A DNA stretch of 37,621 nt, taken from contig CAZZPR010000020.1 of the NCBI GenBank assembly GCA_964655655.1, positions 1-37,621 of the forward strand, in the 5' to 3' direction. Under the pieces are notes generated by a model that ran no database searches, was not told the DNA's origin, and saw nothing but the letters and a program-made list of their open reading frames with translations. Positions 2,220-35,978 of this stretch are shown here, piece by piece; position 1 is the first letter of the stretch; the number at the start of each line of letters is the position of its first letter. The DNA is from an uncultured Desulfobacteraceae bacterium. GTDB lineage: Bacteria; Desulfobacterota; DSM-4660; Desulfatiglandales; B25-G16. Position numbers and translations under genes: made by a program.

Positions 2220-5200
2220 ATGCCCAAGAGAACCGATATATCGAAAATTATGATCATAGGATCCGGGCCGATTATTATCAGTCAGGCCTGCGAATTCGAC
2301 TATTCGGGGACCCAGGCGTGCAAGGCCCTCAAAGAAGAGGGATACGAAATCGTGCTTTTGAACAGCAACCCGGCAACCATCATGACCGATCCATTGACTG
2401 CGGACCGGACTTACATAGAGCCGATAACACCGGAAGTGGTCTCCATGATTATTGAAAAGGAGCAGCCTCATGCTCTTCTGCCAACCCTCGGGGGGCAGAC
2501 CGCCCTGAATATCGCCTTTCAGGCGGCAGAAACCGGTATCCTGGACAGATTCGGGGTGGAGATGATCGGTGCTTCCGCTGAAGCGATTAAAAAGTCCGAA
2601 GACCGCGAACTGTTCAAGGCCGCCATGGAGCGTATCGGCCTTAGAGTGCCGAAAAGCAGCATTGCCCGCGACATGGAAAGTGCAAGGACCATTGCAGGGC
2701 AGATAAACTACCCGATAATCGTCAGGCCGGGCTTTACCCTCGGAGGAACCGGCGGTGGTGCGGCATTCAACAGGGAGGACCTTGAAAAGCTTGCTGCCCG
2801 GGGGCTGGATGCCAGCCTGATAAATGAAATCATGCTGGAGGAATCATTAATAGGGTGGAAGGAATTCGAGCTCGAGGTTATGAGGGATGCAAAGGATAAT
2901 GTTGTGATTATCTGCTCCATAGAAAACCTTGATCCCATGGGAATACATACCGGAGACAGCATTACGGTTGCTCCGGCCCAGACCTTGAGCGACAGGGAAT
3001 ACCAGTACATGAGGGATTCGGCCATAGCAGTGATAAGGGAAATCGGCGTGGACACGGGTGGATCCAACATTCAGTTCGCAGTAAACCCTGAAAACGGGGA
3101 CATGGTGGTTATAGAGATGAATCCCAGGGTATCGCGCAGCTCCGCCCTGGCCTCCAAGGCAACCGGATTTCCCATTGCAAAGATTGCGGCCAAGCTGGCC
3201 GTAGGTTACGCCCTGGACGAACTCCCAAACGATATAACCAAAGAAACTCCCGCATCCTTTGAGCCGGCCATTGATTATTGCGTGGTCAAAGTCCCAAGGT
3301 GGGCATTTGAGAAATTTCCCGAGACGCCCGATTATTTGACCACCAGTATGAAATCAGTGGGAGAAGTGATGTCCATTGGAAGGACATTCAAAGAAGCACT
3401 CCAGAAGGGGCTAAGGTCCCTTGAGACCGGTCGTTTCGGCCTTGGAGCGGACGGCGTTGGCTTCTTTGAGGGGAACGGGATGATTCTCCTTTCCCCGGAT
3501 GAAATAAAGGAGAAACTCGCCCACCCCAATTCGGAACGGATCTTCTGCATCAGACATGCCTTAAAAATCGGCATGGACGTGGAAAAAATCCATTCCCTTA
3601 CCGGCATCGATCCCTGGTTTCTTTACCAGATAGAGCAGATTGTACGGATGGAAGAAGATATCGCATCCGCCGGACAAATACCGGATAATGGGCCCCTGAA
3701 AAAGAGCAAGGCCTTTGGATTTTCCGATGTGCAGATTGCATATCTTACCGGAAGCAATGAAAACCACATCCGGGAGACCCGGAAGAATTACGGAATTATG
3801 CCGGTTTACAAACTGGTAGACACCTGTGCCGCAGAGTTTGAGGCACGGACCCCCTACTATTACTCTGCATACGAACAGGAAAACGAGGCCCGGGTTTCCG
3901 AAAGAAAAAAGGTCATGATCCTGGGCGGAGGGCCGAACAGGATAGGCCAGGGGATTGAGTTTGACTACTGCTGTGTGCACGCCGCCCTCGCCCTCAAGGA
4001 GGAAGGAGTTGAGTCCATAATGGTGAACAGCAACCCCGAGACCGTTAGCACGGACTATGATACCTCTGATAAGCTCTACTTTGAGCCGCTTACCGGGGAA
4101 GACGTTTTGAACATCGTGGATAACGAAAAACCCATGGGGGTTATATTACAGTTCGGGGGCCAGACCCCGCTAAATCTTTCATCTTCACTGGCGAAAGCAG
4201 GAGTGTCCGTTCTGGGCACCCCCCCTGAGAGTATTGCGCTGGCTGAAAATCGAGAATCCTTTAATATTCTGGTCAAAAAGCTGGGCCTTGGACAGCCTGA
4301 AAACGGAATAGCAACCAACGTGAATGAATGTCATGCTGTGGCGGAAAGCATTGGATATCCGGTGATGGTAAGGCCTTCCTATGTTCTCGGGGGAAGGGCC
4401 ATGAAAATCGTACACGACCGTCAGTCCCTGAAGGAATTCACGGAAAAGGCCATACTGGCCTCCCCGGACCACCCGGTATTGATAGACAAATTCCTTGAAG
4501 ATGCCATTGAGGTAGACGTGGACGCGATTTCCGACGGGCAAGATACTATTATCGCCGGAATAATGGAGCATATCGAGGCGGCCGGAGTCCATTCAGGGGA
4601 CAGCGCCTGCGTTCTTCCGCCCCAAACCCTGGCCAATGCCGTTGCTGATCGAATAAGGGAAAATACTGTTGCAATTGCAAGGCAGCTTAAGATAGTGGGT
4701 CTGCTCAATATACAGTTTGCCGTGAAAAACGGGGAGCTCTTTGTGCTCGAGGTAAACCCGAGGGCATCGAGAACTATCCCGTTTGTAAGCAAGGCAACCG
4801 GAAGGCCTTTTGCAAAGCTTGCCACAAAGGTAATGCTCGGGAAAAGCCTGAAAGATCTCGGTCTAACCCATGAACCGGAACTTCCCCACGTCTCGGTCAA
4901 GGAATCGGTCTTCCCTTTTAACCGGTTCCCTGGAGTGGATATCCTTCTGGGGCCTGAAATGAAATCCACGGGTGAGGTAATGGGAATTGATGACGAATTC
5001 GGCAAGGCATTTGCAAAATCCCAACTCTCCGCCGGGCAAATGCTGCCCTTAAATGGATCAGTTTTTGTCAGCGTAAAGGACTCGGACAAGGATAAGATAT
5101 ACCCGGCGGTAAAAAGGCTCTATGAGATGGGCTTTAACATTCTTGCCACCAAGGGTACGTCCGTTCACCTGAAAAGGCTCGGTATTCCAAATCAAAGAGT

Positions 5201-9120: not shown

Positions 9121-10449
9121 TTAGAGTATGGGCAGATATTTTTCGATTTCATATTTGCTTACATGGACACGGTACCTGTCCCACTCGATTTTCTTGTTGG
9201 CCAGAAACTTGTTGAATATGTGGTCGCCAAGGGTTTCGCGCACCAATCTGCTTTTTTCAACCTCTTGCACCGCCTCGAAAAGGTTTCCGGGCAATGAACT
9301 GATTCCCGCCTGTTCCCTGGCAGCCTCGTCCATCTCATAAATATCCCTTTCTATGGGTTCAATGAGGGAATAGCCTTCCTCTACACCCTTCAATCCGGCC
9401 GCCAGCATAACCGAGAATGCCAGATACGGGTTGCAGGCCGGGTCAGGGGACCTGAGCTCCATCCTCGTTGCCTGCTCTTTGCCCGGTTTATACATGGGCA
9501 CCCTGATCATGGTGGACCGGTTCCGCCTGGCCCAGGAAATATAAACAGGCGCCTCGTACCCCGGAACAAGCCTTTTGTATGAGTTTACCCACTGATTTGT
9601 AACGGCGGTTATCTCCCTCGCGTGTGCCATAACTCCTGCTATGTAGGATTTTGCCACCGGTGACAGATTATAAGAATCCCGGGGATCATAAAAACTGTTG
9701 AGGTCGCCCTTGAACAGGGACTGGTGTATGTGCATGCCGCTTCCGTTTTCACCGAACACGGGTTTCGGCATGAAGGTGGCATAATATCCCTTGAGCCTAG
9801 CAATTTCCTTAACCGCTATCCTGTAGGTCATTGTCTTGTCCGCCATGGCCAGCGCCTCGTCATACCTGAGGTCGATTTCATGCTGGCTGGGGGCCACTTC
9901 ATGGTGACTGTATTCCACGCGAATCCCCATTTTTTGAAGTGCAAAGATCATCTCTCTTCTAAGGTCGCTTCCCAGGTCCAGGGGCCTGTTGTCGAAATAT
10001 CCGCCTTTGTCAAGGAACTTCGGCGAGTTTGGGTTTTCCAATAAAAAGAACTCCAGCTCCGGCCCGACATAGGCCCTAAACCCCTTTTCAGCAAGTCTTT
10101 TGGTCATCTTTTTCAATACATATCTGGGGTCTCCTTCATAGTGACTTCCGTCCGGCTGAAGAATATCGCAGAATAGCCTCGCCACCGGTTGATCGGCTGG
10201 CCTCCAGGGGAGGAACTGAAAGGTAGTCGGCTCGGGCATTGCTATCATATCACTCTCCTCGATCCTCGCAAACCCCTCAATGGAAGACCCGTCAAATCCC
10301 ATTCCCTCTTCCAGACCTTCCTCCAGCTCGGAAGGGGTAATGGCAAAGCTCTTCAGGATTCCGAGTACATCCGTAAACCAGAACTGTATGAAGCTGACAT
10401 TTTTCTCCTTGACAAGCTTCAGGACATCTTTTTTTGTTTGGCAAAGCAT
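9121..10449 (-). CDS. glnA: Glutamine synthetase type I.
   Basis: 442 aa. N-terminal beta-grasp 'VSFIQFWFTDVLG' and conserved GS catalytic-region motifs. Confidence 0.9.
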   Translation of the reverse strand: MLCQTKKDVLKLVKEKNVSFIQFWFTDVLGILKSFAITPSELEEGLEEGMGFDGSSIEGFARIEESDMIAMPEPTTFQFLPWRPADQPVARLFCDILQPDGSHYEGDPRYVLKKMTKRLAEKGFRAYVGPELEFFLLENPNSPKFLDKGGYFDNRPLDLGSDLRREMIFALQKMGIRVEYSHHEVAPSQHEIDLRYDEALAMADKTMTYRIAVKEIARLKGYYATFMPKPVFGENGSGMHIHQSLFKGDLNSFYDPRDSYNLSPVAKSYIAGVMAHAREITAVTNQWVNSYKRLVPGYEAPVYISWARRNRSTMIRVPMYKPGKEQATRMELRSPDPACNPYLAFSVMLAAGLKGVEEGYSLIEPIERDIYEMDEAAREQAGISSLPGNLFEAVQEVEKSRLVRETLGDHIFNKFLANKKIEWDRYRVHVSKYEIEKYLPIL

Positions 10450-10475: not shown

Positions 10476-11720
10476 TCAATATTCTTTATTACCACCGAGC
10501 ACTTTCGGTATGTCCAGTCCCGTGACATCTTTTATGCCTTCTAATATGGGAGCAACGGATCCTGTTACCCCCTTAACGAATCCGGGCATACCTTTTCCGT
10601 TACCGCTGTCAATAATGGATATTTTATCGATCCGCAGGTTATCGGCTACCATACCGGTAATCTTGTCCAGGAGGTCGGGCAGCTGTTGAATCAAGAAAAG
10701 ATCTCTGGTATCTTTCTCCCACTGTTCTTTCAATGATCTTACGGCCTCAGCGGTCGCCTTGCCCTCCTCGGCTATCCTTGCGGCATCACCAATGGCCCTT
10801 AGTTCTTTGGCCTCCTTTTCCGCCCTGGCAGGAACAATCATTTCTGCTTCGTATTTGCTCCTGTTCATTTCTACCCTCTCTTTTTCGAGGTTCTTTTCCT
10901 CGCTAATCCGTGATATTTCGCCCGCCACTTTTGCCCTGGATTCGGCCGTGTTGGCCACTGCATCCAGCTCGGCCCTCTTTACCCTCAACTTGTTTTCCGA
11001 CTCCGCTATTGCCGTATTCGCCAAGGCCTCCGCCATGCTTGCTTTCTTCTTTGCCTCAGCGATTACTTGGCGTGCTTCTGCCTCTGCATTGGCTTCCGTT
11101 ATCCGGGCATCTCGCATAACTTCCGCACTCTTCTTTCTCCCCCCAGCCTCCAGATAGCCTTGGCCGTCGGAGATGCTCTTAATCTTAAAAGTATCAAGCA
11201 CCAAACCGAGCCTCATGAAATCACTTCTTGTTTCCCGGGCCACCCTTTCGGCGAACTCCAGCCTGTTGCTGTTCGTCTCCTCCGGTGTCAGCGTGGCCAA
11301 GACACCTCGAAGGCTTCCTTCAAGGTTTTCCTTTGCCACCCGGGATATTTCCTCGGTATTTTTACCCAGGAATCTCTCCAGGGCATTCGACAGGCCTTCC
11401 CCTTCACTGCCGGCTATCTTAACCGTGGCCATGGCCTGAATGTCTATGGGTATAACGCCGTTTGTCAATGCCCCGGTTAGTGCCAGATCAATGGGTATGG
11501 CATTAAGAGACAAACTGGTAACCGATTCTAAAACCGGAATTTTAAGCCCTCTTCCTCCCTTTATTATCCTGTATCCCGCCTCTGTGCCGTCCTTGAGCCG
11601 CCTTTTTCTTCCGGAAAAAATCAGTATCTCGTTCGGATGACAGATCTTCAGGTTCGCCTTGACAAAGGCGAGAATAACCAAAATTATTATTACACTTGAT
11701 ACTATCCAGAATCCCGTCAT
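10476..11720 (-). CDS. SPFH/band-7 (flotillin-like) membrane protein.
   Basis: An N-terminal TM helix is followed by an SPFH domain and a long Ala/Glu-rich coiled coil (EAEARQVIAEAKKKA...). Start re-called at 'MTGFW' because RBS 'gggagg' lies 7 nt upstream. The tracked start 11768 would overlap glnK. Confidence 0.7.
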   Translation of the reverse strand: MTGFWIVSSVIIILVILAFVKANLKICHPNEILIFSGRKRRLKDGTEAGYRIIKGGRGLKIPVLESVTSLSLNAIPIDLALTGALTNGVIPIDIQAMATVKIAGSEGEGLSNALERFLGKNTEEISRVAKENLEGSLRGVLATLTPEETNSNRLEFAERVARETRSDFMRLGLVLDTFKIKSISDGQGYLEAGGRKKSAEVMRDARITEANAEAEARQVIAEAKKKASMAEALANTAIAESENKLRVKRAELDAVANTAESRAKVAGEISRISEEKNLEKERVEMNRSKYEAEMIVPARAEKEAKELRAIGDAARIAEEGKATAEAVRSLKEQWEKDTRDLFLIQQLPDLLDKITGMVADNLRIDKISIIDSGNGKGMPGFVKGVTGSVAPILEGIKDVTGLDIPKVLGGNKEY

Positions 11721-11757
11721 GATAAGCCTCCCTAATGATATTTTTCCCGCTCCCGGG

Positions 11758-12102
11758 TCATTTTCCAATGGCCTTTGGGCCCCGGTCCAGGGTCCTTATC
11801 CTTATGCAATGCGGCAAATCCAGCACAAATATCTTGCCGTCACCTATGTTCCCTGTTTTGGCGCCTTTGATCACTGCCTCGATAATCGGTTCTACGAAAT
11901 CATCATTGCATGCAATCTCGACCTTTACCTTCTTAAGGAGGCTGCCTGCTTCCTTTGACCCCCTGTAGACTTCTGTGTACCCCATCTGACTCCCGCGTCC
12001 CAAAACATTGGAAACAGTCATCATGTTCACATCCACCTCCTCCAGTGCCTTTTTTACCTCTTCCAATCTATGGGGCTGAATAACAGCGATCACGTATTTC
12101 AT
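11758..12102 (-). CDS. glnK: Nitrogen regulatory protein P-II.
   Basis: 114 aa, '[20 protein letters not shown]' with a T-loop region '[13 protein letters not shown]'. RBS 'aggagga'. It lies immediately downstream of amt, which is the canonical amt-glnK pair. Confidence 0.85.
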
Positions 12103-12111
12103 TTCATCCTC

Positions 12112-13344
12112 CTATTCCAATACAGTATAAGCGGCTTCATGATGCTGTGTGATATCGAGACCCACCATTTCGTCTTCCCTTGTAACCCTCATTCCGAACA
12201 GGGCGTCCACCAGCAGGAAGAGGGCCCAGGTCATTGCTATTGCATAAACCGCACACACGCCCAGGTATATAGTCTGAATCAAAAACAGTCTGGTATTCCC
12301 GAAAAACAGCCCGTCCGCCCCCGCAGCATTGATGGCCTTTTGGGCGAAAAGTCCTGTTGCAAGTGTTCCCCACATTCCCCCAACTCCATGAACGCCGAAG
12401 ACATCAAGGGAATCATCGTAACCAAGCTTGGGCTTCAACGAGGTGACCGCTAAATACGAAAATATACCACCCGGAACCCCGATGGCTATTGCGGACAAGG
12501 GGCTTACAAAGCCGCAAGCCGGAGTTATGGACACCAACCCGGCAACTACGCCTGTTACTGTTCCCAATATAGTAGGTGCACCGTGCTGCTGCCACTCAAT
12601 CAGGGCCCAGGTAAGTCCCCCTGCAGCGGCTGCTATGTATGTTGTCATGAATGCATTTGCAGCAATCCCGCCTGCCTCTAAAGCACTGCCCGCATTAAAG
12701 CCGAACCAGCCGAACCATAAAAGGGCCGCCCCCAGTACGGTGATCGTTAGATTATGCGGGGTAAATGAATGTTTCTCATAACCCAATCTTTTTCCAGCCA
12801 GTATTGCCAGGACAAGGGCGGAGAACCCGGAGCTCACATGCACAACAATGCCCCCGGCGAAATCTAAAGCTCCAAGCTCTTTTAACCACCCTCCTGTTGA
12901 CCAGACCCAGTGAGCAATCGGTTCGTACACAAAAGTAGCCCACAGAAGCATCAAAAAGACGAATGCGGAAAACTTGATCCTTTCCGCAAAGGCACCCACA
13001 ATCAAGGCCGGTGTAAGTATTGCGAAAGTTGCCTGGAACATAACGAAGGCCATGTGGGGAATAGTGCCGGAGTAGTCCGGGTTGATCGTTATGCCCACCC
13101 CTTTTAACCCAACCCAGTCAAGGTTACCGATGATGCCGTGACCGGTGTCAGGCCCGAAAGATATGGAGTATCCATATATGACCCACTGCAATCCGATCAG
13201 GCACATCAGGACAAAGCATTGCATTAAAATGGAAAGTACATTCTTCCTCCGGGCCATGCCCCCGTAAAAGAAGGCTGCCCCGGGTGTCATGATAAACACC
13301 AGGGCTGCCGAAATCAGCACCCATACAGTATCACCTGAATCCAT
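12112..13344 (-). CDS. amt: Ammonium transporter.
   Basis: 410 aa polytopic membrane protein. Amt signature region 'DFAGGIVVHVSSGFSALV'. RBS 'ggaggtg'. Confidence 0.9.
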   Translation of the reverse strand: MDSGDTVWVLISAALVFIMTPGAAFFYGGMARRKNVLSILMQCFVLMCLIGLQWVIYGYSISFGPDTGHGIIGNLDWVGLKGVGITINPDYSGTIPHMAFVMFQATFAILTPALIVGAFAERIKFSAFVFLMLLWATFVYEPIAHWVWSTGGWLKELGALDFAGGIVVHVSSGFSALVLAILAGKRLGYEKHSFTPHNLTITVLGAALLWFGWFGFNAGSALEAGGIAANAFMTTYIAAAAGGLTWALIEWQQHGAPTILGTVTGVVAGLVSITPACGFVSPLSAIAIGVPGGIFSYLAVTSLKPKLGYDDSLDVFGVHGVGGMWGTLATGLFAQKAINAAGADGLFFGNTRLFLIQTIYLGVCAVYAIAMTWALFLLVDALFGMRVTREDEMVGLDITQHHEAAYTVLE

Positions 13345-13448: not shown

Positions 13449-13466
13449 AGCAAGGAAGGTGCCAAA
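13449..13466 (-). promoter_or_regulatory. Sigma-54 (-24/-12) promoter for amt-glnK(-flotillin-glnA).
   Basis: The minus-strand sequence reads 'tTGGCACcttccTTGCt', i.e. GG-N10-GC with consensus TGGCAC-N5-TTGC. It lies about 105 nt upstream of the amt ATG. Confidence 0.55.
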
Positions 13467-13664: not shown

Positions 13665-15248
13665 TCAACGGTAGAGCCTATAGTCGACCCCGTATTTATT
13701 TGCCTTATATGTGAATTTGCGCTCACTTATATTCAGCATCTTTGCCGCCTTTGACATGTTTCCCTGGGTATTTTTCAGGGCATCGATAATCATCTCCTTC
13801 TCAAGGCTGGCAACGGCGTCCTCCAAAGAGAGAGCTGGTATAGTATCCGACTGTTTACCTGTCTGCAGGCTCGGCGGCAGGTGATAACTGTGTACCACAC
13901 CCTCCTCGCAGAGCAGCACAGCGCGCTCGATACAGTTCTCGAGTTCCCTCACATTGCCCGGCCAGTGGTATTGAACCAGCATGTCGATAGCAGGGGTTGA
14001 AAACCTTCTGATATCCTTTTGGTTCTCTCTGGCATATTTTTCCAGGAAATAGTCGGCCAGCAGCAGTATATCAGTTTTGCGTTCCCTGAGGGGAGGCAGA
14101 TATATGGGAAAGACATTCAGACGGTAATAGAGATCGCTTCTGAAAGTTTCCCCCTCCAGGGCCTGTTCGAGGTTTTTGCTGGTTGCCGCAACGATCCTGA
14201 TATCCGCCTTGAGGGTTTGATGTCCGCCTACCCGCTCGAACTCTTTTTCTTGAAGCACCCTTAGTAGCTTTACCTGAACCTCCATATCAACGGAGCCTAT
14301 TTCATCCAGGAAAATCGTACCTTTACTGGCGAGCTCGAATTTACCCGGTTTTTGACGAATGGCCCCGGTGAACGCACCCTTTTCATGGCCAAAAAGCTCG
14401 CTCTCGATAAGGTTTGCAGGCAGTGCGGCACAGTTTACCTTGACAAATGGCTTTTGTGCCCTGGGACTGTTATAATGAATGGCGCTCGCCACCAGTTCTT
14501 TTCCGGTACCGCTTTCGCCCCTTATCAAAACCGTGGCATTGCTCTTACAGACCTGGGAGATCATCTGGTAGACCTCCCGCATTTTGTTGCTGTTGCCTAT
14601 GATGTTGGTGATATGGTATTTTCTGGAAAGCTCATCCCTTAATCTTATGTTTTCCTGCCTCAGCTTCTCTTTTTCAAGGTGCAGGCTTTCCAGGTTTATA
14701 ACATGCTGTGCTATCATGGTTGCAATTATTGAAAGGAGCCTCTCCCCGTCTTTAAGGGAATAGGATTCATCATAGGGCCTGTCAACACTCAGGGTGCCTA
14801 CAACCTGTTCCCCTTTTTTTACAGGAACACAGATAAAGGAAAGCTCCTGATCGTGGATAGCCCTTCTTGTGGCGGTGCGATCGAGAAAAGAGGGTTCCTG
14901 GCTGATTTTAGGTACCACCAAGGCCTTTCCGGTCTGGATTACCCTTCCTGTGACGCCTTCTCCTATGGAGTATTTTCCCCTCTCCATGGCGGCCAGGGGC
15001 ATGCCGTGGGCCACCTCAATCCTGATTTCGTTTCTAAGGGGATTAAGGATAGTTACAGTTCCCCGCACCATCCCCATAGAGTTTGAAAGGATCTCCAGCA
15101 CCCTGTAAAGCGATTTCCTAAGGTCCAATGTCTCACTGAGGGCATTGGTTATCTCATAGAGAAGGGCGAGTTCCTCGGTCTTTCTTATAGAAACATTATC
15201 CATCATTGATGATTTTTCCATAGCAATGATTTTTATCAAATAAAGCAA
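13665..15248 (-). CDS. Sigma-54-dependent transcriptional activator with an N-terminal GAF domain (NifA/NtrC-like bEBP).
   Basis: Walker A 'GESGTGKE', a GAFTGA-type loop '[10 protein letters not shown]', an R-finger region and a C-terminal HTH ([15 protein letters not shown]). Confidence 0.85.
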
Positions 15249-15524: not shown

Positions 15525-17069
15525 CTATTCAACATTGTACATTATAATTTGACTTCTTCCGGAACTTTTTTGGATGGATAATACCAATTCCAGACCCTGG
15601 CCGTCTTGGGACTTCTTCAGGCAATAACCCGTTATCGGTCCGGGCATATCTTTGGTCTTCCACTTGGTGGCAATACTCAAACCGTCCCATTGGAGGAAAT
15701 GCATTCTACCGCTTGAAAACATCCTGTTTTTTTCAGTCATTCTATTAATAGAAGACTTGTTCTTGCATACAACCACTTCCTTAATACCGTTATTGTCCAG
15801 GTCGCTTAAAAGCATAGGGGGGGAAAAATGAAACCATTTCTCAGTACCTACATCTCTTCCCTGGGCAACCATGTGAATGTCAAGCCCTCCGAATTCATCC
15901 TCGCTCTTCCATATTCTGTCGCCGTCCTGGGTAACAAGAAACAGAAATTCCGTTTCCGGGCTTAATACCATGGTTTCTACAGAGCCTCCACCTGTCAAGC
16001 TTCCCTTGACAAAGTTGAACACATTTGCCATTGAGGGGAGCGTCAGGGGTTCCGCTTTTGTAAAATGGTTACCGTCCCTGTTCAATACGTATACGTGACC
16101 CGAAAATCCTCCCCCGGTAAGCCTTTTCTGGCCTATCAGGGTTTCACCTTTATCAGGTAGATTTACAACTCGAAAAAACCACCTCTGTCCCTTTGATATA
16201 ACTTTGAAATCCCCGGAACTCCATTCCAGAACAAAGGAGGACAGGGTGGACCCGGCAAGATTTGATACATATATCTCCTCCCTGCCGTTCTTATCCATGT
16301 CTCCTATAGAAACGTATACAAATTCGGGAGACCAGCTTCCCTGGATCTTTCTAAGCTCGGCAAAGGCCTTTTCCTGCCACTTGTATATATAAACAGTATC
16401 GCTATCAATACACACCAGTTCATCCTTGCCGTCTCCATCCACATCACCTGAATCCATGCCTATAATACCGGTCTTGAATGACTGAACGTGACCGATATCC
16501 TTTTTTTGCAGGCCCTCTGCTACTTTAATAAGCCCAGACCTTTTCTCTGTGCCCCCAGGCTTTTGTACGTAAACCGGTTCCCTGGTGGACCGCCCCAAAA
16601 TCTTGGCATTAATATCCTTTGCAAACTGGTTTATGGCGGGAATCACCTCGTCCATGCCCTTGGACTGGTTGAATGCAGTCACCAGTTTCTCTCCCTTGTC
16701 CACGTCCAGTATGCTGGCATCCATGCTGACACTTTCACCGAAAACGGTGAGGCTTCCTATAATCACATAATCCGCACCCAGGGATTTTCCTGCCTTTATA
16801 CCGGCGTCCTTGTCCAACCTGCCTTTAAGACGGGTTAGTTCTTCTTTCACGAGCCTCTCTTCGGCAACAACAACCTTGTCCTTCCATGCTAAACGGGATG
16901 AAAGCATGTCCACTATGCCTTCCTGCAAAAAAGAAAGGTCCCTGTCTGCGTTGATTTTGAAGGGCATTACAGCCACCTTTTTTATATTTTCCGAATATGC
17001 CGTATTTCCCAGGCAAACGATGATAAAACCCAGGGTAAATATTAAAACCCTAATACCCTTTTTTCCCAT
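15525..17069 (-). CDS. Secreted beta-propeller protein with FG-GAP/Ca-binding repeats and an N-terminal TolB-N/CsgG-like domain.
   Basis: Signal peptide 'MGKKGIRVLIFTLGFIIVCLGNTAYS'. Repeated 'DxDxDGxxE' motifs (DVDGDGKDELV, DMDKNGREEIYV, DLDNNGIKEVVV). RBS 'aagggggag'. Confidence 0.55.
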   Translation of the reverse strand: MGKKGIRVLIFTLGFIIVCLGNTAYSENIKKVAVMPFKINADRDLSFLQEGIVDMLSSRLAWKDKVVVAEERLVKEELTRLKGRLDKDAGIKAGKSLGADYVIIGSLTVFGESVSMDASILDVDKGEKLVTAFNQSKGMDEVIPAINQFAKDINAKILGRSTREPVYVQKPGGTEKRSGLIKVAEGLQKKDIGHVQSFKTGIIGMDSGDVDGDGKDELVCIDSDTVYIYKWQEKAFAELRKIQGSWSPEFVYVSIGDMDKNGREEIYVSNLAGSTLSSFVLEWSSGDFKVISKGQRWFFRVVNLPDKGETLIGQKRLTGGGFSGHVYVLNRDGNHFTKAEPLTLPSMANVFNFVKGSLTGGGSVETMVLSPETEFLFLVTQDGDRIWKSEDEFGGLDIHMVAQGRDVGTEKWFHFSPPMLLSDLDNNGIKEVVVCKNKSSINRMTEKNRMFSSGRMHFLQWDGLSIATKWKTKDMPGPITGYCLKKSQDGQGLELVLSIQKSSGRSQIIMYNVE

Positions 17070-17215
17070 CCGAACTCTCCCCCTTAATAATCCTTTTTGT
17101 TAATAAGGTACTAACATTACTAAAGCTCAATGTAAAATCAAATAAAAACTCGCTGTGCATGACTTTTCTCAATTCTTTTTCTCTTTCCAATCCGCCAAAT
17201 ACGGTTCATATTGCT

Positions 17216-17375
17216 TCAACTTTGACGGACTCGTAAAAAGCTCAAATTCAAGGCGCGCAAATCCTGAGGAATGAGGCGTGCTTTATGGTACGCTGCAGTG
17301 ACCTGGCTGCAGCAGGCAGGCGAAGGATGCAGCGCAACGCAGAAGTTGGACTTTTTACGAAGCCATCAACTTTGA
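17216..17375. mobile_element. MITE-like element: about 140-bp GC-rich insert with imperfect 14-bp terminal inverted repeats, flanked by the 10-bp direct repeat TCAACTTTGA.
   Basis: Direct repeat 'tcaactttga' at 17216-17225 and 17366-17375. The inner ends 'ggactcgtaaaaag' (17227-17240) and 'ctttttacgaagcc' (17351-17364) are reverse complements of each other at 12 of 14 positions. The interior has hairpin potential (ctgcag-tgacctgg-ctgcag). Confidence 0.4.
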
Positions 17376-17515
17376 TTTATTCCTGAGAAAAGCAATGCCA
17401 TTATTTTTTGAATTCGGGATTTTGCAGTGATAAGCATTTCTCGACAGGAAAAGCACCGGGTATTTACACCAAATCCGGGCTCCAAATTCTGATACACAAA
17501 ATTTTTGAAATACCA

Positions 17516-17544
17516 TTGACAAAGAAACTGGCTAAATCTATAAG
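17516..17544 (+). promoter_or_regulatory. Sigma-70-like promoter TTGACA-N17-TATAAG, about 90 nt upstream of hdrA.
   Basis: Read directly. The -35 is at 17516-17521 and the -10 at 17539-17544. Confidence 0.35.
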
Positions 17545-17631
17545 TATCCAAACGGGAACAGTGCCCCGGGCTGTGTGCATAAAATATTCATAATTTTAAA
17601 AAAAATAGATATATTTTTAACTGGTGCCTAA

Positions 17632-20600
17632 ATGAAAAACAATATTACCGGATCAGTGATGGTGGTTGGCGGGGGAATTACAGGAATGCAGGCCTCTCTG
17701 GATCTTGCCGATTCGGGTTATTATGTTTACCTTGTTGAAGGCTCTTCCTCCATAGGCGGCGTTATGTCGCAGCTGGACAAGACCTTCCCCACTAATGACT
17801 GCGCAATGTGAATAATCTCCCCTAAACTGGTCGAGGTCGGCCGGCACATTAACATTGAATTGATGACCCTCTCAGAGGTGAAGGGCATAAAAGGGGAGGA
17901 GGGTAAATTTGAAGTAAATGTTATCCAACACCCCAGGTATGTGGATACAAACAAATGCATAGCCTGCGGTTTATGTGCGGAAAAATGTCCCAGAAAGGTG
18001 GATGACGAGTATAATCAGTCACTGAATAAAAGAAAGGCCATATATCTCCAATACCCCCAGGCCGTGCCCCTTAAATATGCCATCGACTCAGAAAACTGCA
18101 TCTTTTTTCAAAAGGGTAAATGCAGGGCCTGTGAAAAGTTCTGTCCAAGCGGGGCCATTGACTTCGAGCAAAAGGAAGAAAAACGTACCGTAAACGTAGG
18201 CTCTGTAATAATGTGCCCCGGGTTTGATATATTTGACCCGGCGGTACATGATACGTACGGTTACACCAAGGCACCCAACATCATAACCAGTATTGAATTC
18301 GAAAGGGTTCTCGCTTCCTCCGGACCTTACGGCGGTCACATGGTAAGGCCGTCGGACGGCAGGGAGCCGGAGAAGATTGCATGGCTTCAATGCGTGGGTT
18401 CAAGGGATGTGCACCAGGGTGCCAACTCTTATTGTTCTGCTGTTTGCTGTACCCATGCCATAAAAGAGGCCCTTGTTGCAAAAGATCACAAAAAGGGGGG
18501 TTTGGATACCGCTATATTCTTCATAGATATCAGGGCATCGGGCAAGGATTATGAAAGGTATTACAACCGGGCCAAGGACCAGCAGGGCGTAAGATTCATT
18601 AAATCCAAGATCACCCATGTAAAACATATCCAGGAAACAGGTAACCTGCTCATAAGGTACACCGATGAGCAGGGAAAAAGGGTAGAGGAAGAATTTGATA
18701 TGGTGGTGCTTTCCGTGGGCTTTTTCGTATCAAAAAGGCTGCGGGAATTCGCAGAAAAAATAGGCATAGAACTGGACCATCACAACTTTCCCGAGACAAA
18801 AAGTTTTGCCCCCGTGCAAACCAATAAACCGGGTATCTATATCTCGGGCTGCTTCCACTCTCCCAAGGACATACCTTCTGCTGTAACGGATGCAAGTGCT
18901 GCAGCGGCCAACGCAGGGGGCACCCTTTCGGTTTCCAGGTTTACATTGACCAAAAAAAAGGAATTGCCCCCGGAAATCCCAGCATTGGAAATAAAAGGTG
19001 AGAGGCCACGTATAGGGGTGTTCGTCTGCCAATGCGGAACCAACATTGCAGGTGTTGTGGATGTGCCGGAGGTAGCGAAGTACGCTGAGTCCCTTCCTTT
19101 TGTGGAATATACGGAGCAAAATCTTTTCAGCTGTTCCCAGGACACCCAGGAAACCATAGCCAAGGCCATAAAGGAAAACAAATTAAACAGGGTAGTGGTC
19201 GCATCCTGTACACCCAAGACACACGAGCCATTGTTCCAGGAAACAGCAAGAGAGGCCGGGATCAACAAATACCTATTTGAGATGGCCAACATAAGAAACC
19301 AGTGTTCCTGGGTGCATTCAGAATACCCTGAAGAGGCAACGCAAAAGGCCAAGGATTTGGTTGCAATGGCGATAAGGAAGTCCGCACTTCTTGAGCCGCT
19401 TCAGGAGGCAGAGCTTAACGTAACCCAGGCCGCCCTGGTTATAGGCGGGGGCATAGCAGGAATGAACGCGGCCAAAAACCTGGCCGAACAGGGATACAAG
19501 ACCTGTCTTGTGGAAAAAACCGGCAAGCTGGGAGGAAACGCCCTCAGGCTTTACCGGACCTGGAAAGGAGAAGATATACAGGAAAACCTAAAAGGCCTTA
19601 TTTCAAGCATAGAATCCCAGAAAAACATAGAGGTACTTCTTGACACAGAGATAAAGGAGGTGGAGGGATTTGTAGGCAATTTCATAACAACCCTTGTTAC
19701 CGGTGAGCAAGAAAAAAAGATAGAGCACGGTGTTGTAATTGTAGCCACCGGTGCAAAGGAATTGCTCCCCGAGGAATATCTGTACGGCACTGACTCCCGG
19801 GTGGTTACCTCCCTGGAGCTTGATGATATGTTTATAAATGGGGATAAAAGCCTGGAGGAAACAGGTACCTGCGTATTTCTTCAGTGCGTAGGTTCCCGAA
19901 TACCGGAAAGGCCCTACTGCTCCAGGGTATGCTGCACACATTCCGTGGTAAGCGCACTCAGGTTGAAGGAAGTAAAGCCGGATATGGACATATTTATCCT
20001 TTACCGGGATATGAGGACCTACGGGCTGAGGGAGGAAATCTACAGGGAGGCAAGGGATAAAGGCATAAAGTTCATTCGCTTTGACAATGAAGAGGATATG
20101 AATGTGGAAACCACGGAACAGGGGCTTTCAGTTGCCTTTATTGATTTTACCCTGAGAAGAAAGATGCGGATAAACCCGGATTTACTGGTCTTGGCTTCTG
20201 CCATTGTAAAAAGCGACGGAGAATCTCTGGCAAGACAATTCAAGATATCTTTAAACCAGGATGGCTTCTTCACTGAGGCCCATGTAAAGCTCAGGCCGGT
20301 GGATTTCGCCACGGACGGGGTGTTTTTGTGCGGCCTTGCCCACTCCCCCAAGCCAATTGACGAATCGGTAATCCAGGCACAGGCGGCGGCATCAAGGGCG
20401 GTTACTTTGCTGTCCCGGAAGACCATACACAGCAGCGGTAATGTGGCGGCAGTTGATCCAAGTTTCTGCAGCAGCTGCGGTGTGTGCATTGCCGTGTGCC
20501 CGTTCAGTGCCCCTGAATTCAACCAGGATACGGGCAAGGCGGAGATAAATCCGGTAATATGCAAGGGATGCGGGCTGTGTGTGGCCTCTTGCAGGTCCGG

Positions 20601-20655
20601 TGCCATCCACCTTAACGGGTTTGACGAGAATCAGATAATGTCCATGATAGCTTGA
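17632..20655 (+). CDS. hdrA: HdrA-like FAD/Fe-S flavoprotein (heterodisulfide reductase subunit A family), predicted selenoprotein with an in-frame TGA (Sec) at 17809-17811.
   Basis: The ORF track starts at 17860, but the same frame is open from ATG 17632. It encodes '[62 protein letters not shown]', which is the canonical HdrA N-terminus (…[13 protein letters not shown](I/L)…) with TGA where the second Cys sits. A SECIS-like hairpin 'ctggtcg-AGGT-cggccgg' lies at 17827-17844. Downstream are multiple Cx2Cx2Cx3CP ferredoxin motifs and a second FAD/NAD fold '[12 protein letters not shown]'. Confidence 0.8.
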
Positions 20656-20709
20656 TATGTTTACCGGAATTAGTTGCAATAAATTATGAAAAAATACAGG
20701 GAGAATAAG

Positions 20710-21141
20710 ATGAACGACTGGAGTCCGAGAATCACTGCCTTTCTTTGCAACTGGTGCAGTTATGCGGCGGCTGATCTGGCCGGAATAAACCGGATGCAAT
20801 ACCCCCCTAATATCAGGGCCATCAGGGTACCGTGCTCCGCAAGGGTGGATCCGAAGTTCATTCTGCATGCCTTGAGGAACGGCTCAGACGGAGTATGGGT
20901 TTCCGGGTGACACCCCGGGGAATGTCATTACCTGGAAGGTAATTATTATGCCAGAAGAAAGTTTGCGCTCTTAAAAAATTTCCTGGAGCATTTAGGGATG
21001 GGGCCTCAAAGGCTTACCTTTTCCTGGATTTCATCCTCGGAGGCCGGAAAATTCGCTGAGGTAGCCACGGAGGTAGTCGAAAAAGTAAAGGAGGTTGGCC
21101 CGATAGAAAGACTTGTAAAGAAAAGGGCCGAGGTAGCCTGA
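20710..21141 (+). CDS. mvhD: MvhD-like [2Fe-2S] electron-transfer protein (methyl-viologen-reducing hydrogenase delta subunit family), predicted selenoprotein with TGA (Sec) at 20908-20910.
   Basis: The tracked ORF ends at the TGA (…DGVWVSG*). Reading through gives '[22 protein letters not shown]…', which matches the MvhD 'VSGCHPGDCHY' motif. The N-terminus has 'FLCNWCSY' and 'VPCSARVD'. A hairpin 'attacc-tggaa-ggtaat' lies 17 nt after the TGA. RBS 'agggaga' precedes the ATG at 20710. The stop overlaps the next start (TGATG). Confidence 0.75.
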
Positions 21142-22091
21142 TGAAGGAATACACGGAAAAGATAAGAGAGGCGGCAAAAAAAATCTTGGAGGAAAACAAG
21201 GTTGATGTGGTCATCGGCTTCAAAAAGGGATCCGCTCCCTTTATGGTGGAGCCGGTTTTAATAAGGGACAGTGAACAGTCCGATCAACTTTACTGGAGCA
21301 GTTTCTGCTTTATCAACCTCGCCAATTATCTGCCAAAAAGAGAAGATAAAGTAGGAATAATGGCAAAGGGCTGCGATTCCAGGAATATTGCCCTTCACAT
21401 AATAGAAAACCAGATAAACAGGGAACAGCTTTATATAATAGGCATACCTTGCAGGGGAATGGTGGACAGAAGAAAGATAGTGTCCTCTCTAAAAGGCAAA
21501 GAGGTTACAGAGGTTGAGGAATCGGAAAAAGAAATTGTGGCCAAAGGGGAAGGCTTTGAGCAAACCTTTAACCGGGAAGATTACTTGCAGGAGAATTGCA
21601 AAACCTGTATGCACCGAAACCCCGTAATATATGACGAGCTTGTGGGGGAGCCGGTCAAGGAAAGGGAAGAACCGGACCCCTATGAGGATGTGAAGGATAT
21701 AGAAGAAAAGGAATCGGAAGGTAAGTGGGAGTTTTTCTCGGATCTTATCAAGGATTGCATCCGTTGCTACGCCTGCCGAAATGCTTGCCCCTTATGCTAT
21801 TGCCCCGTTTGCTTTGTGGAGGAATCCGACCCTCAGTGGGTGGGCAAGAGTATTGACCCGGTTGATACCATGACCTTTCACATCCTCAGGGCCTATCACT
21901 GTGCCGGCAGATGTACGGACTGCGGGGCATGTGAACAATCCTGCCCCATGGAAATCCCGGTCAGGCAATTTACAAGAAAATTAAACAAGGACGCCCTCGA
22001 GCTGTTCAATCACGAGGCCGGGCTGAGCACAGAAGAAAGGCCTCCCCTGGATACCTACAGGCCCGACGACTATGATGAATTTATGAGATAA
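21141..22091 (+). CDS. Di-[4Fe-4S] cluster protein, possibly an FrhB/FdhB-like electron-transfer subunit.
   Basis: Two motifs, 'CIRCYACRNACP' and 'CTDCGACEQSCP'. The N-terminal roughly 200 aa lack recognisable Cys motifs. Confidence 0.55.
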   Translation: MKEYTEKIREAAKKILEENKVDVVIGFKKGSAPFMVEPVLIRDSEQSDQLYWSSFCFINLANYLPKREDKVGIMAKGCDSRNIALHIIENQINREQLYIIGIPCRGMVDRRKIVSSLKGKEVTEVEESEKEIVAKGEGFEQTFNREDYLQENCKTCMHRNPVIYDELVGEPVKEREEPDPYEDVKDIEEKESEGKWEFFSDLIKDCIRCYACRNACPLCYCPVCFVEESDPQWVGKSIDPVDTMTFHILRAYHCAGRCTDCGACEQSCPMEIPVRQFTRKLNKDALELFNHEAGLSTEERPPLDTYRPDDYDEFMR

Positions 22092-22102: not shown

Positions 22103-23140
22103 ATGGAAGATAAGATAATAAAAAAGGCAGAATTATCCAATTTCCTTGATTCCTTGAAAAAGAACTACGAGGTATTTGTTCCGGTAAAGGAAAAGGGCTT
22201 TTACGAGTTCAGGCCTTTTGCAGATCAACATGGCCTGGATCAGGATTTTACCAACACCCGGCTTTCACCGAAATCATTCCTGTTTCCCCAGTCCGAGAGG
22301 ATGCTTGAATTTGATCTGGATGAGCAAAAAGACGACGCCTATATACCCAAGGAGGTCCCAAAGGAATACCCGCCTGCTGTAATAGTTGGCATCAGGCCTT
22401 GCGACGCCAGGGCATTAAGGCTGATAGATGTAAACTTCAATAATCCGGAGTTCAAGGACCCCTGGTGGTTGAGGCATCTCCAGTCAATGGTTTTCGTGGG
22501 TCTGGGCTGCAATCAACCGGAAAGTACCTGTTTTTGCACTTCCGTAGGCGGCGGACCATTTAATGAGGAAGGTCTGGACATACTCCTTTTTGACCTGGAG
22601 GGAGATTATCTGGCCAGGCCCCTTACGGAAAAAGGCGATAACCTTTTAAAAGAAGCCGGGGTAAAGACCAAGGCGGACAAGGGCGCAAAAAGTAAGGCCC
22701 AAGAACTCAAGAAAGAGGCGGAAAACCGGATTAAAAGCCACGTGCCCACTGAAAAACTGAAAGAAAAAAACATGCTTGAGCTTTTCGATGCACCCTTCTG
22801 GGACGACGTTGCTTTTGCCTGCATCAACTGCGGTACCTGCACGTTCCTTTGCCCAACCTGCTGGTGTTTCGATATTCAGGATGAGGTTCAAAAAGATACG
22901 GGTGACAGGATAAGAAACTGGGACAGCTGCATGTTTCCCCTTTTTACCCTTCACGCCTCGGGCCATAATCCGAGATCGGAGAAGGTGCAGAGGGTAAGGC
23001 AAAGATTCATGCACAAATTAAAATATTATGTAGACAGATACCAAAACGGGGTTGCCTGCGTTGGATGCGGCAGATGCATTAAACACTGCCCGGTGAATAT
23101 TGATATTCGAGAAGTGTTCAAACTCATGAACGATCTTTAG
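22103..23140 (+). CDS. AsrA / sulfhydrogenase-beta-like Fe-S subunit.
   Basis: 345 aa with 'CINCGTCTFLCPTCWCF' and 'CVGCGRCIKHCPVN'. Size and Cys spacing are typical of anaerobic sulfite reductase subunit A and Pyrococcus HydB. Confidence 0.6.
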   Translation: MEDKIIKKAELSNFLDSLKKNYEVFVPVKEKGFYEFRPFADQHGLDQDFTNTRLSPKSFLFPQSERMLEFDLDEQKDDAYIPKEVPKEYPPAVIVGIRPCDARALRLIDVNFNNPEFKDPWWLRHLQSMVFVGLGCNQPESTCFCTSVGGGPFNEEGLDILLFDLEGDYLARPLTEKGDNLLKEAGVKTKADKGAKSKAQELKKEAENRIKSHVPTEKLKEKNMLELFDAPFWDDVAFACINCGTCTFLCPTCWCFDIQDEVQKDTGDRIRNWDSCMFPLFTLHASGHNPRSEKVQRVRQRFMHKLKYYVDRYQNGVACVGCGRCIKHCPVNIDIREVFKLMNDL

Positions 23141-23178: not shown

Positions 23179-24024
23179 TTGAAAGAAAATCCGTATCTCC
23201 CTTATCCGGTGAGGATTCAAAAGATCTTCACAGAAACAGAGGATAAGAACCTTAAGACATTCAAGTTGACCTTTCTAAATAAAAAAGGCGAGAAAAATTT
23301 TTCTTATATCCCCGGCCAGTTTTGTGAGCTCTCCATAGCGGGAAAAGGCGAAATACCCATAGGAATAGCCTCCTCCCCTACGGAGAAGGGGTTTCTAATG
23401 TTTACCGTTAACAAGACCGGTGTAGTTACCACCTTTCTTCACAATATGAAGGAAGGGAACGTAATGGGTATCAGGGGCCCCCTGGGCAACTGGTATCCCT
23501 GGGAAGAGATGGAGGGCAAAAATGTTGTTATAATAGGGGGAGGGTTCGCATTTACCACTCTGAGATCCAGCATTATATACATGCTCCATCCGGAGAACAG
23601 GAAAAAATTCAAGGATATTACCGTGGTTTACGGTGCAAGGTCCCCCGGGCTCCTGCTTTACAGGGAAGAGCTCACCGAATGGGAAAAGAGGGATGACCTT
23701 GATATGCACATAACGGTGGATGCCACCGATGACCCCGACTGGCCCTATAACGTAGGCTTTGTTCCCGCCATAACTGAGAAAAAGGTTACCACGAGCGAGG
23801 ATACCTACGCCCTGGTATGCGGACCGCCCATCATGATTAAGTTTACACAACCGGTGCTGGAAAAGGCGGGATTTACTCCCGAACAGATAATCATGTCACT
23901 GGAGATGAGGATGAAATGCGGAATAGGTATATGCGGAAGATGCAACATCGGGGATAAATATGTATGCAAGGACGGCCCTGTCTTCTCCCTGGCCCAGCTA
24001 AACAACCTGCCCAAGGAATACTAA
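23179..24024 (+). CDS. AsrB / HydG / PyrK-like FAD- and NAD(P)H-binding oxidoreductase with a C-terminal [2Fe-2S].
   Basis: FNR-like fold (flavin-binding region around 'IRGPLG', NAD site '[10 protein letters not shown]') and C-terminal 'CGIGICGRC'. Confidence 0.7.
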
Positions 24025-34686: not shown

Positions 34687-35754
34687 ATGGGTAAGGTATC
34701 CTTTTTTGCCCCGGGCAGGCTAATGATTGTGACCGGTTTACTTTTTGGTGCACTCGCTTCACTGCTAACCGAATGGGGCAATCCTGCCAATATGGGTATC
34801 TGTGTAGCCTGTTTCTATAGAGATATTGCCGGCGCAGTCGGGCTTCACCGGGCAGCTGTTGTCCAGTATATCCGACCTGAAATACTTGGATTTATATTTG
34901 GCGCATTCTTTTCTTCCCTTGGCTTCCGGGAATTTAGGGTAAGGGGCGGCTCCTCCCCTCTAGTCCGCTTTCTGTTGGGCACGTTCTTTATGATCGGCGC
35001 CCTGGTCTTTTTAGGATGCCCCATCCGTGCGCTTCTGAGGCTCGCCGGCGGAGACCTCAACGGTGTTACCGCTCTGGCGGGGGTTGTATTCGGGGCAATC
35101 ATCGGTATACAGTTCCTTAAAAACGGCTTTACACTGGGAAGATCATCAAGTATGCAGGCGTCGATAGGAGGACTTATGCCGTTAATATCCACCGGTTTCC
35201 TCCTGATGGTTATATTCAGGCCGGATTTCCTGTTTTTCAGTAAAAAGGGGCCCGGCTCCTTGCATGCCCCTATCTGGATCGCCCTGTTTACCGGTCTGTT
35301 GTTAGGCTTCCTGGCCCAGAGGACAAGGATGTGTTTTGTCGGGGGATGGAGGGACCTGATGCTGGTAAAGGATTCTTATCTCTTCAAGGGTGTTGCCTGT
35401 TTCTTTATAGGGGCAATAATTCTGAATGCAATACTCGGCGGCCATATCCACTGGGGTTTTACCGGGCAGCCAGTCGCCCATGATAATCATATATGGAACT
35501 TCCTGGGAATGACCCTTGCCGGACTGACCGCTACCCTTTTAGGTGGATGCCCCTTGCGTCAAACCATTTTAACGGGAGAAGGTGACTCAGATGCCGCCTT
35601 GACCGTGCTCGGCCTGGTTGCCGGTGCCGGCATTTCCCATAATTTCAACCTGGCCAGCAGCCCCAAGGGTGTGGGCGAATGGGGTCCGCTGGCGGTTATA
35701 ATAGGCCTTGCATTTTCCATTGCTATAGGGGTTTTAATGAGAGAAAAATCATAA
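34687..35754 (+). CDS. yedE: YedE/YeeE-family membrane protein (sulfur/selenium-compound transporter family).
   Basis: 355 aa polytopic protein with the two conserved Cys-containing re-entrant motifs 'GICVACF' and 'GCPIRALLR' in pseudo-repeat halves. Confidence 0.7.
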   Translation: MGKVSFFAPGRLMIVTGLLFGALASLLTEWGNPANMGICVACFYRDIAGAVGLHRAAVVQYIRPEILGFIFGAFFSSLGFREFRVRGGSSPLVRFLLGTFFMIGALVFLGCPIRALLRLAGGDLNGVTALAGVVFGAIIGIQFLKNGFTLGRSSSMQASIGGLMPLISTGFLLMVIFRPDFLFFSKKGPGSLHAPIWIALFTGLLLGFLAQRTRMCFVGGWRDLMLVKDSYLFKGVACFFIGAIILNAILGGHIHWGFTGQPVAHDNHIWNFLGMTLAGLTATLLGGCPLRQTILTGEGDSDAALTVLGLVAGAGISHNFNLASSPKGVGEWGPLAVIIGLAFSIAIGVLMREKS

Positions 35755-35765
35755 GGAGGCTTGAA

Positions 35766-35978
35766 ATGATAGAGGTCGATGCACGGGGTCTTTCCTGTCC
35801 TATCCCGGTGGTCAGGAGCAAGAAGGCTATCGATGAAAACCCCGGGGATAAGATACTGGTGATAGTAAACGAGGCAACCCAGAGGGATAATGTAACCCGA
35901 CTGGCAAAAAGCAGGGGCTACAACATAAAGGTAGAGGAAGTTCAAGATGAATACCGGCTTGAGCTGAAACCTGCATGA
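35766..35978 (+). CDS. yedF: TusA/SirA-fold sulfur (selenium) carrier protein, YedF-like.
   Basis: 70 aa, 'MIEVDARGLSCPIPVV' CPxP motif. RBS 'aaggagg' 6 nt upstream. The tracked ORF start at 35679 is an upstream extension. Confidence 0.7.
   Translation: MIEVDARGLSCPIPVVRSKKAIDENPGDKILVIVNEATQRDNVTRLAKSRGYNIKVEEVQDEYRLELKPA

Follow-up and report, generated by a model that had tools for sequence, protein, structure and literature searches.

A probable selenocysteine codon within a truncated hdrA annotation, and a second within the adjoining mvhD gene, of an uncultured Desulfobacteraceae bacterium

The stretch of DNA analysed here (the window, 37,621 nucleotides) comprises positions 1 to 37,621 of the forward strand of contig CAZZPR010000020.1 from an uncultured Desulfobacteraceae bacterium (assembly GCA_964655655.1), and our subject is an hdrA-like gene within it whose 5′ region contains an in-frame TGA. 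Starting at ATG 17632, which lies immediately 3′ of a TAA, a single frame of 1007 codons can be translated on the plus strand (17632..20655) as far as the terminator TGA 20653-20655, with the TGA at 17809-17811 as its sole interruption. We hold with high confidence that this TGA is a selenocysteine (Sec) codon within one 1007-residue HdrA-like flavoprotein, a reading built on sequence comparison. An initial annotation, made from the letters of the window, had proposed that the 5′ region of hdrA is mis-split at this codon, and the frame is indeed open from ATG 17632 apart from the TGA. The features of hdrA on which the argument turns are as follows (SECIS, selenocysteine insertion sequence; ORF, open reading frame).

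17632..20655, plus strand: full-length hdrA-like gene of 1007 codons with predicted Sec at codon 60 (translation, Pfam and NCBIfam matches, alignments to 5ODC_A and 8rvu_a)
17809..17811, plus strand: in-frame TGA, proposed selenocysteine codon, residue 60, motif C57-A-M-U60 (structure alignment and codon column)
17827..17844, plus strand: putative bacterial SECIS hairpin within the coding sequence, codons 66-71, LVEVGR (fold, bacterial SECIS criteria, synonymous constraint)
17860..17865, plus strand: false start codons TTG 17860 and ATG 17863, inside the real gene, taken as starts by ORF finders and in the public call

The available gene calls break at the TGA. A mechanical ORF list gives 17860..20655 with a TTG start (931 residues) and, in the same frame, a separate 59-codon ORF at 17632..17811. 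The public protein (P0001) has 930 residues and begins MTLSEV at ATG 17863, and the deposited hdrA annotation is therefore truncated, with loss of the N-terminus that binds flavin adenine dinucleotide (FAD). The 59 upstream codons, which the initial annotation had interpreted as an FAD-binding start, do carry the GxGxxG motif, and in full-length Cys homologues this segment stands in one chain with the remainder of the protein. Among the best 120 database clusters for HdrA, which served as our protein-level comparison set, 34 are full-length (998-1015 residues) and contain TFPT(N/E)DC(A/S)(M/L)C, with Cys-type members of 1006-1015 residues beginning at the equivalent Met, and roughly 80 are N-terminally truncated, with varied M, L or V starts just 3′ of that motif. 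Sec-type hdrA genes in metagenomes are systematically mis-annotated. In the closest relative (locus L081, 73% identity), hdrA carries a TGA and a hairpin identical to those of the window, and the gene calls are split likewise into a 59-residue "gene" with FAD-binding matches and a 926-residue gene; the mvhD gene of L081 is missing from the gene calls altogether.

With respect to the identity of the interrupted position, alignment with Sec- and Cys-type HdrA places the TGA on a conserved Cys. Specifically, residue 60 matches, in a gap-free alignment, Cys197 of 5ODC_A (in DCSIC) and the Cys of DCSMC in 8rvu_a, and it also aligns with residue 197 of chain 9sfi_A, which is non-standard and appears as X in DDCAMXILAPK. 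The earlier assignment of the TGA to the second Cys of DCSMC is thus borne out by the HdrA structures and by the 34 full-length Cys-type homologues, and the expectation that the family alignment would continue 3′ of the TGA also held, homology to HdrA being found on both sides. At the nucleotide level, we assembled a genome set of 80 loci, mostly Desulfobacterota metagenome-assembled genomes together with some Chloroflexota and archaea, fetched via the alignment of HdrA proteins. The codon homologous to residue 60 was located by tblastn in N-terminal HdrA domains (E < 1e-38) using a 138-residue N-terminal query, which aligns through codon 60 at 47-80% identity. This codon is TGA at 62 sites, in addition to the window's own, and TGC or TGT at 45, with no other codon observed; TAA and TAG were found at none of the homologous positions in the HdrA N-termini of the 80 loci. 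The cultured relatives Desulfopila sp. IMCC35008 (L048) and Desulfogranum marinum DSM 2058 (L053) are among those with TGA.

Selenocysteine has been described at precisely this position. HdrA (NF040770), with the motif CxxU, is among the selenoprotein families given in a 2026 review (PMC13188914), and a 2026 cryo-electron microscopy study of the Methanococcus maripaludis Hdr-Vhu-Fwd assembly reports Sec197 in HdrA and suggests that FAD and cluster A3 may be linked by a Cys-Sec relay (PMC13518236). Residue 60 of the window protein occupies the position of this Sec197 (9sfi_A) and of Cys197 in Methanothermococcus thermolithotrophicus HdrA (5ODC_A). According to the crystal structure as discussed by Chadwick et al. 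(PMC9012536), the N-terminal [4Fe-4S] cluster of an HdrA subunit has Cys197 of its partner as a ligand.

The initial annotation had further pointed to a hairpin with a GGU-containing loop just 3′ of the UGA, and this is present at 17827-17844 after a spacer of 15 nucleotides. Its 5′ arm CUGGUCG (17827-17833) and 3′ arm CGGCCGG (17838-17844) form 7 bp around the loop AGGU (17834-17837), which places the apical loop 22 nucleotides from the UGA, and the hairpin is both the minimum free energy (MFE) and the centroid structure of the 52 nucleotides from the UGA, at -10.2 kcal/mol. The element agrees on all four counts with the bSECISearch model of the bacterial SECIS as summarised in PMC13188914, so that the check proposed with the initial annotation came out in its favour. 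The model calls for an apical loop of 3-9 nucleotides on an upper stem of 4-16 bp (here 4 nucleotides and 7 bp), a G in loop positions 1-2 that is usually followed by G or U (here A-G-G-U), a UGA-to-loop distance of 16-37 nucleotides (here 22) and an MFE of -7.5 kcal/mol or lower (here -10.2).

In terms of conservation, the hairpin separates the two codon types clearly. All seven pairs are in register at 55 of the 62 TGA sites (window included) as compared with 1 of the 45 Cys sites (Fisher p = 2e-21, uncorrected for phylogeny), and no two of the 62 TGA-type sequences are identical over the 60 nucleotides 3′ of the codon. When stem cells are counted individually, 97.2% are paired at TGA sites versus 64.1% at Cys sites, and shifting the 3′ arm out of register by 1-3 nucleotides gives 3-59%. 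Where the peptide LVEVGR is encoded 3′ of a TGA, 49 of 50 sites use the identical 18-mer CTGGTCGAGGTCGGCCGG; the eight Cys-type sites encoding the same peptide use eight different 18-mers. Third-position codon entropy, calculated over sites sharing the consensus residue, is 0-0.67 bit for codons +6 to +11 in the TGA group versus 1.0-2.2 bits in the Cys group. The flanking codons (-10 to +4 and +12 to +24) are equally variable in both groups, and because they provide an internal control, we take the conservation of the 18-mer to reflect selection on the RNA and not recent common ancestry. Divergent second hdrA copies in three loci (L023, ~9758; L046, ~4975; L059, ~10890) are also Sec-type, encode the peptide KMLDVGRH and lack the common 18-mer. 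These copies have another 7-bp hairpin, GGAUGUC-GGUC-GGCAUCC, shifted by 5 nucleotides, in which the position and the type of loop are kept.

These data bear directly on the literal reading of the codon as a genuine stop, under which hdrA would be either a pseudogene or truly split into a 59-residue peptide and a protein of about 930 residues starting at TTG 17860 or ATG 17863. Gene callers give exactly such a split, and other genes of the window do use TGA as their normal stop. Nonetheless, a TGA is kept at 62 related sites across which the query aligns at 53-80% identity, with Cys as the only alternative and never TAA or TAG, and the 59 codons hold the GxGxxG FAD-binding motif that belongs to a single chain in full-length Cys homologues. 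The false starts, moreover, vary between genomes, and a true stop would not explain why synonymous sites immediately 3′ of the TGA are constrained. We therefore consider a genuine stop at this codon very improbable.

A second recoded gene appears to lie directly 3′ of hdrA, where the following features were identified.

20710..21141, plus strand: mvhD (FlpD/VhuD-like), with ATG 20710 as the likely start, ATG 20686 as an alternative and TGA 21139-21141 as the stop
20908..20910, plus strand: in-frame TGA of mvhD, proposed selenocysteine, in VSG-U-HPGECHY, residue 67 counted from ATG 20710
20927..20943, plus strand: candidate SECIS hairpin of mvhD, AUUACCU (20927-20933), loop GGA (20934-20936), AGGUAAU (20937-20943)

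The 74-residue ORF listed 3′ of hdrA matches PF02662 (E = 2.9e-27) as an N-terminal fragment only, covering profile positions 1-59 of 123. Reading through TGA 20908-20910 yields a complete MvhD that aligns end to end with MvhD chains from Hdr complexes of known structure (E = 1e-33 to 1e-46) and matches the NCBIfam VhuD and HdrA2 C-terminal models; in 5ODC_D, 7bkb_F and 9sw2_D, the residue opposite the TGA is the first Cys of GCHxGDCHY. In L081, the equivalent MNDW comes after a stop, which supports the choice of ATG 20710 as the start. In 82 aligned sites (window included), the codon column of mvhD contains 42 TGA, 40 TGC or TGT and nothing else. MvhD/VhuD/FrhD is an established selenoprotein family (PMC1794560, PMC13188914, PMC2702500).

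The mvhD hairpin begins 16 nucleotides 3′ of the UGA, with a UGA-to-loop distance of 23 nucleotides and a 7-bp stem that, like the GGA loop, suit the bSECISearch model, and is seen in an 81-nucleotide fold; on its own, however, it reaches -4.5 kcal/mol, weaker than the -7.5 threshold, and the first 42 nucleotides have a different MFE fold. Six or seven of its seven pairs are in register in 39 of 42 TGA sites, versus mostly three or four of seven in Cys sites, and only the TGA sites show a fall in synonymous entropy, over codons +6 to +11. In all syntenic loci but one, hdrA and mvhD agree in codon type, Sec or Cys. That sole discordant locus, L032 (6172 and 9258), has an hdrA with TGA and an adjoining mvhD with TGC.

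The wider window is informative as to the genetic code. TGA is the commonest ordinary stop, ending 13 of its 29 genes, hdrA and mvhD themselves among them (mvhD in a TGATGA doublet, 21139-21144), such that the same codon would specify Sec and stop within one gene. Code reassignment is therefore excluded, and the two internal TGAs call for context-specific recoding. When the window was scanned for additional in-frame TGAs flanked on each side by 45 or more open codons, no further candidate in a gene with homology on both sides emerged. In terms of selenium metabolism, the window encodes a yedE (34687-35754) that qualifies as an equivalog of TIGR04112, a putative selenium transporter (478 bits versus a cut-off of 200), a yedF/TusA-like CPxP sulfurtransferase inside the ORF 35679-35978, following yedE, and a protein with the PF11823 (DUF3343) "Se/S carrier" domain at 35975-36583. 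The "Se/S carrier" gene is followed by a carbohydrate-kinase-like ORF at 36544-37479.

Several observations weigh against selenocysteine insertion in hdrA as set out above. The folding energy of the hdrA hairpin is at chance level (z = -0.51), 61 of 200 shuffled sequences folding at least as well, and that of the mvhD hairpin is likewise not above shuffled controls; we therefore dropped energy as an argument and take the significance of the hairpins from the comparative data only. Among the TGA-type sites, stem variants are one-sided (C-G to U-G, G-C to G-U, with variant loops AGUG and AGGC), and we found zero two-sided compensatory changes and hence no proof by covariation, so that the structural argument rests on conservation. 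The loci are related to one another, and the counts of TGA and Cys codons accordingly represent non-independent events. No Rfam match was obtained with the whole window at gathering thresholds or with 17600-21200 at E <= 10, which means only that no curated model covers the hairpin. Finally, none of selA, selB, selD or a transfer RNA (tRNA) for Sec (selC) is present in the 37.6-kb window, whose sole tRNA is tRNA-Val.

The lack of sel genes in the window could also be taken to favour read-through of the UGA, or its reassignment to one of the standard amino acids (Trp, Gly or Cys), with no selenocysteine machinery involved, and near-cognate read-through of UGA does occur in bacteria. However, the 13 genes that terminate in TGA, hdrA and mvhD among them, speak against such a decoding, as does the location of both recoded TGAs at invariant Cys positions of families already known for Sec. 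A conserved hairpin with G(G/U) in its loop follows each TGA at equal spacing, and yedE and yedF link the window to selenium, all of which makes insertion of a standard amino acid a very poor prospect. Least credible of all, to the point of being negligible, is the idea that sequencing or assembly turned a TGC or TGT into TGA: the record is apparently a metagenome-type contig and a single base separates the codons, but TGA recurs in independent assemblies (the 62 related sites and L081), a second TGA stands at a conserved Cys in the neighbouring mvhD, and the TGA is accompanied by a Sec-specific hairpin sequence that Cys-type genes lack.

If the TGA of hdrA is indeed a selenocysteine codon, a mechanism can be outlined from what is known of the family, in which the insertion by SelB, the chemistry of Sec60 and the reaction performed in the cell are the parts that we infer. 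A ribosome arriving at UGA codon 60 would find the hairpin at 17827-17844 bound by SelB carrying Sec-tRNA(Sec), Sec would be inserted at codon 60, and translation would go on to the real stop, UGA 20653-20655. The mvhD message would be recoded likewise at 20908-20910. In the finished protein, Sec60 would complete a CxxU motif homologous to the Cys197/Sec197 site of methanogen HdrA, and the partner domain for Sec60 would be supplied by residues 457-590 of the same chain.

This last proposal follows from the architecture of the restored protein. Residues 3-432 align with residues 140-565 of 5ODC_A, corresponding to the thioredoxin-reductase-like FAD domain with its inserted ferredoxin domain, and it is here that the CxxU motif is found. 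Residues 457-590 align with residues 2-135 of 5ODC_A, the N-terminal iron-sulfur (Fe-S) domain, and residues 458-1007 align with the whole of HdrA again (8rvu_a residues 12-240 and 323-649). The corresponding phmmer scores are E = 6e-162 for residues 1-590 against 5ODC_A and E = 5e-125 for residues 458-1007 against 8rvu_a, and Pfam reports Pyr_redox_2 and Fer4. In the second copy, the FAD domain (~598-1007) has neither a CxxC motif nor the inserted ferredoxin domain, a C-terminal ferredoxin domain is present, and the stretch that matches the Sec-motif region of the first copy has zero cysteines.

This two-part alignment points to a gene in which two complementary HdrA halves are fused. The first half has the CxxU motif and the inserted ferredoxin domain and is without the N-terminal Fe-S domain, and the second half shows the reverse. 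Such complementarity in fused or tandem HdrAs, including the Moorella HdrABC-MvhD-MetFV enzyme, was described by Chadwick et al. (PMC9012536). The top NCBIfam match is NF040770 (HdrA2; E = 2e-196), whose score of 654 bits lies under the family cut-off of 1100 bits, and it is on this basis that we class the predicted protein as HdrA-like and not as an equivalog of the methanogen HdrA2.

The fused chain contains exactly one CxxU (residue 60) and exactly one N-terminal-type Fe-S domain (457-590), and it is associated with an NAD(P)H module while HdrBC is absent. From this arises a tentative and rather doubtful extension, in which Sec60 might act as a selenium ligand, or as the partner in a selenylsulfide relay, of the sole cluster, and in which the near-invariant 18-mer (49/50) might be recognised in a sequence-specific manner beyond a generic stem-loop. 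The latter part is suggested because the 18-mer is near-invariant across Desulfobacterota while the flanking codons are saturated. Were the former part true, the protein would offer a simpler, asymmetric bacterial model for the function of Sec197 in electron-bifurcating HdrA.

Beyond hdrA and mvhD, the operon contains three further genes.

21141..22091, plus strand: 316-residue Fe-S protein with a weak FrhB-N-like match and two 4Fe-4S motifs, the third gene of the operon (Pfam, synteny)
22103..23140, plus strand: 345-residue Fer4_22 Fe-S subunit, HydB/ShyB/AsrA-like (PF17179 at 1.2e-34, synteny)
23179..24024, plus strand: 281-residue subunit for FAD and reduced nicotinamide adenine dinucleotide (phosphate), NAD(P)H, with a 2Fe-2S domain, HydG/ShyC/AsrB-like (Pfam NAD_binding_1, FAD_binding_6 and DHODB_Fe-S_bind; NCBIfam; synteny)

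The NCBIfam matches of the 345-residue subunit to sulfhydrogenase beta and AsrA fall under their cut-offs, and the 281-residue subunit is presumed to be the entry or exit point for NAD(P)H. The order hdrA, mvhD, 316-residue, 345-residue and 281-residue gene is kept in at least 15 loci as well as in L081, in both Sec/Sec and Cys/Cys versions. This gene composition suggests that the operon probably forms an NAD(P)H-linked, flavin-based module for electron bifurcation or confurcation. Pfam searches found no hydrogenase genes in the operon, and no gene with a CCG domain (HdrB/HdrC) in or beside it within the window. In L081, the region directly 5′ of hdrA (1027-3722) encodes a 585-residue Fe-S protein and a 290-residue CCG-domain (HdrB-like) protein. 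The place of these genes is taken in the window (15525-17631) by a 560-bp non-coding stretch and a divergent FG-GAP repeat protein, and the operon is therefore without an HdrBC-like partner.

With respect to known systems, the window protein resembles methanogen HdrA in its CxxU/CxxC motif, its thioredoxin-reductase-like FAD domain with inserted ferredoxin domain and the adjoining MvhD/VhuD gene. It differs in that methanogen HdrA is a single protein of ~655 residues that forms a homodimer, whereas the window protein is a 1007-residue fusion in an operon lacking hdrBC and hydrogenase genes, and in that methanogen hdrA genes use an archaeal-type SECIS, unlike the putative bacterial hairpin found here within the coding sequence.

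Bacterial precedents are closer. A 2006 survey identified Sec-containing HdrA and FrhD in Deltaproteobacteria, with 7 HdrA and 8 FrhD in Syntrophobacter fumaroxidans alone and further Sec HdrA/MvhD pairs in Syntrophus aciditrophicus and Desulfotalea psychrophila, and also listed HdrA and FrhD of Moorella as selenoproteins (PMC1794560). In 2009, Desulfobacterium autotrophicum HRM2 was reported to contain Sec-type hdrA1/A2 and mvhD1/2/3/5 together with a full selABCD set (PMC2702500). These pairs come from the same phylum as our best-matching loci, and as in the window, hdrA is directly followed by mvhD with both encoding selenoproteins. The published operons differ in often containing hydrogenase (frhG/frhA, mvhAG) or glpC genes, which the window operon lacks. 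The likeness to the published genes is by description, the closest sequences found being at most 73% identical.

The Moorella thermoacetica HdrABC-MvhD-MetFV complex (PMC9012536), likened here by description as well, shares with the window two HdrA halves in one chain, with a complementary "Cys197" and N-terminal Fe-S domain, and an MvhD partner. It differs in that the window locus has neither MetFV nor HdrBC. In Desulfovibrio vulgaris, the genes for FlxABCD-HdrABC, an NADH dehydrogenase/heterodisulfide reductase, encode MvhD-like, Fe-S and NAD(P)H/FAD/2Fe-2S subunits beside HdrA, and Pfam matches reveal that the window likewise has NAD(P)H/FAD/2Fe-2S, Fe-S and MvhD-like genes beside hdrA. Gene order differs, however, and since the CCG-domain HdrB and HdrC are missing from the window operon, we do not file it under Flx-Hdr and regard the resemblance as functional only.

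Against this background, hdrA and mvhD of the window would be further members of long-established selenoprotein families, with Sec at known positions and a standard bacterial SECIS. The earliest selenoproteome surveys of archaea and deltaproteobacteria already recorded Sec in MvhD and at this site of HdrA, and nothing here is biologically unexpected. The main value of the analysis is corrective annotation and not discovery, as such TGAs are routinely missed by gene callers. The corrected calls would restore a complete electron-bifurcating flavoprotein and mark the organism as a user of selenium. In addition, the HdrA-specific 18-nucleotide hairpin could serve as a simple marker for the automatic detection of Sec-HdrA in Desulfobacterota.

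Transcription signals were also considered. Scanning the operon for sigma-70 promoters and terminators gave nothing above chance; a TTGACA-17 nt-TATAAG arrangement at 17516-17544 was spotted by eye, went unreported by the scanner and was not used as evidence. Owing to a nearby gene for a sigma-54 activator, we also searched 17070-17631, 5′ of hdrA, for a sigma-54 promoter and found none, window-wide matches being at chance level. A GAF/sigma-54 activator gene (13665-15248) adjoins an exact sigma-54 consensus, TGGCACCTTCCTTGCT, at 13449-13464 on the minus strand, which is the only exact match in the window, the pattern with two or fewer mismatches occurring at chance level throughout. The consensus lies just 5′ of a minus-strand run that consists of amtB (12112-13344), a P-II gene (11758-12102), a flotillin-like gene (10476-11768) and glnA (9121-10449).

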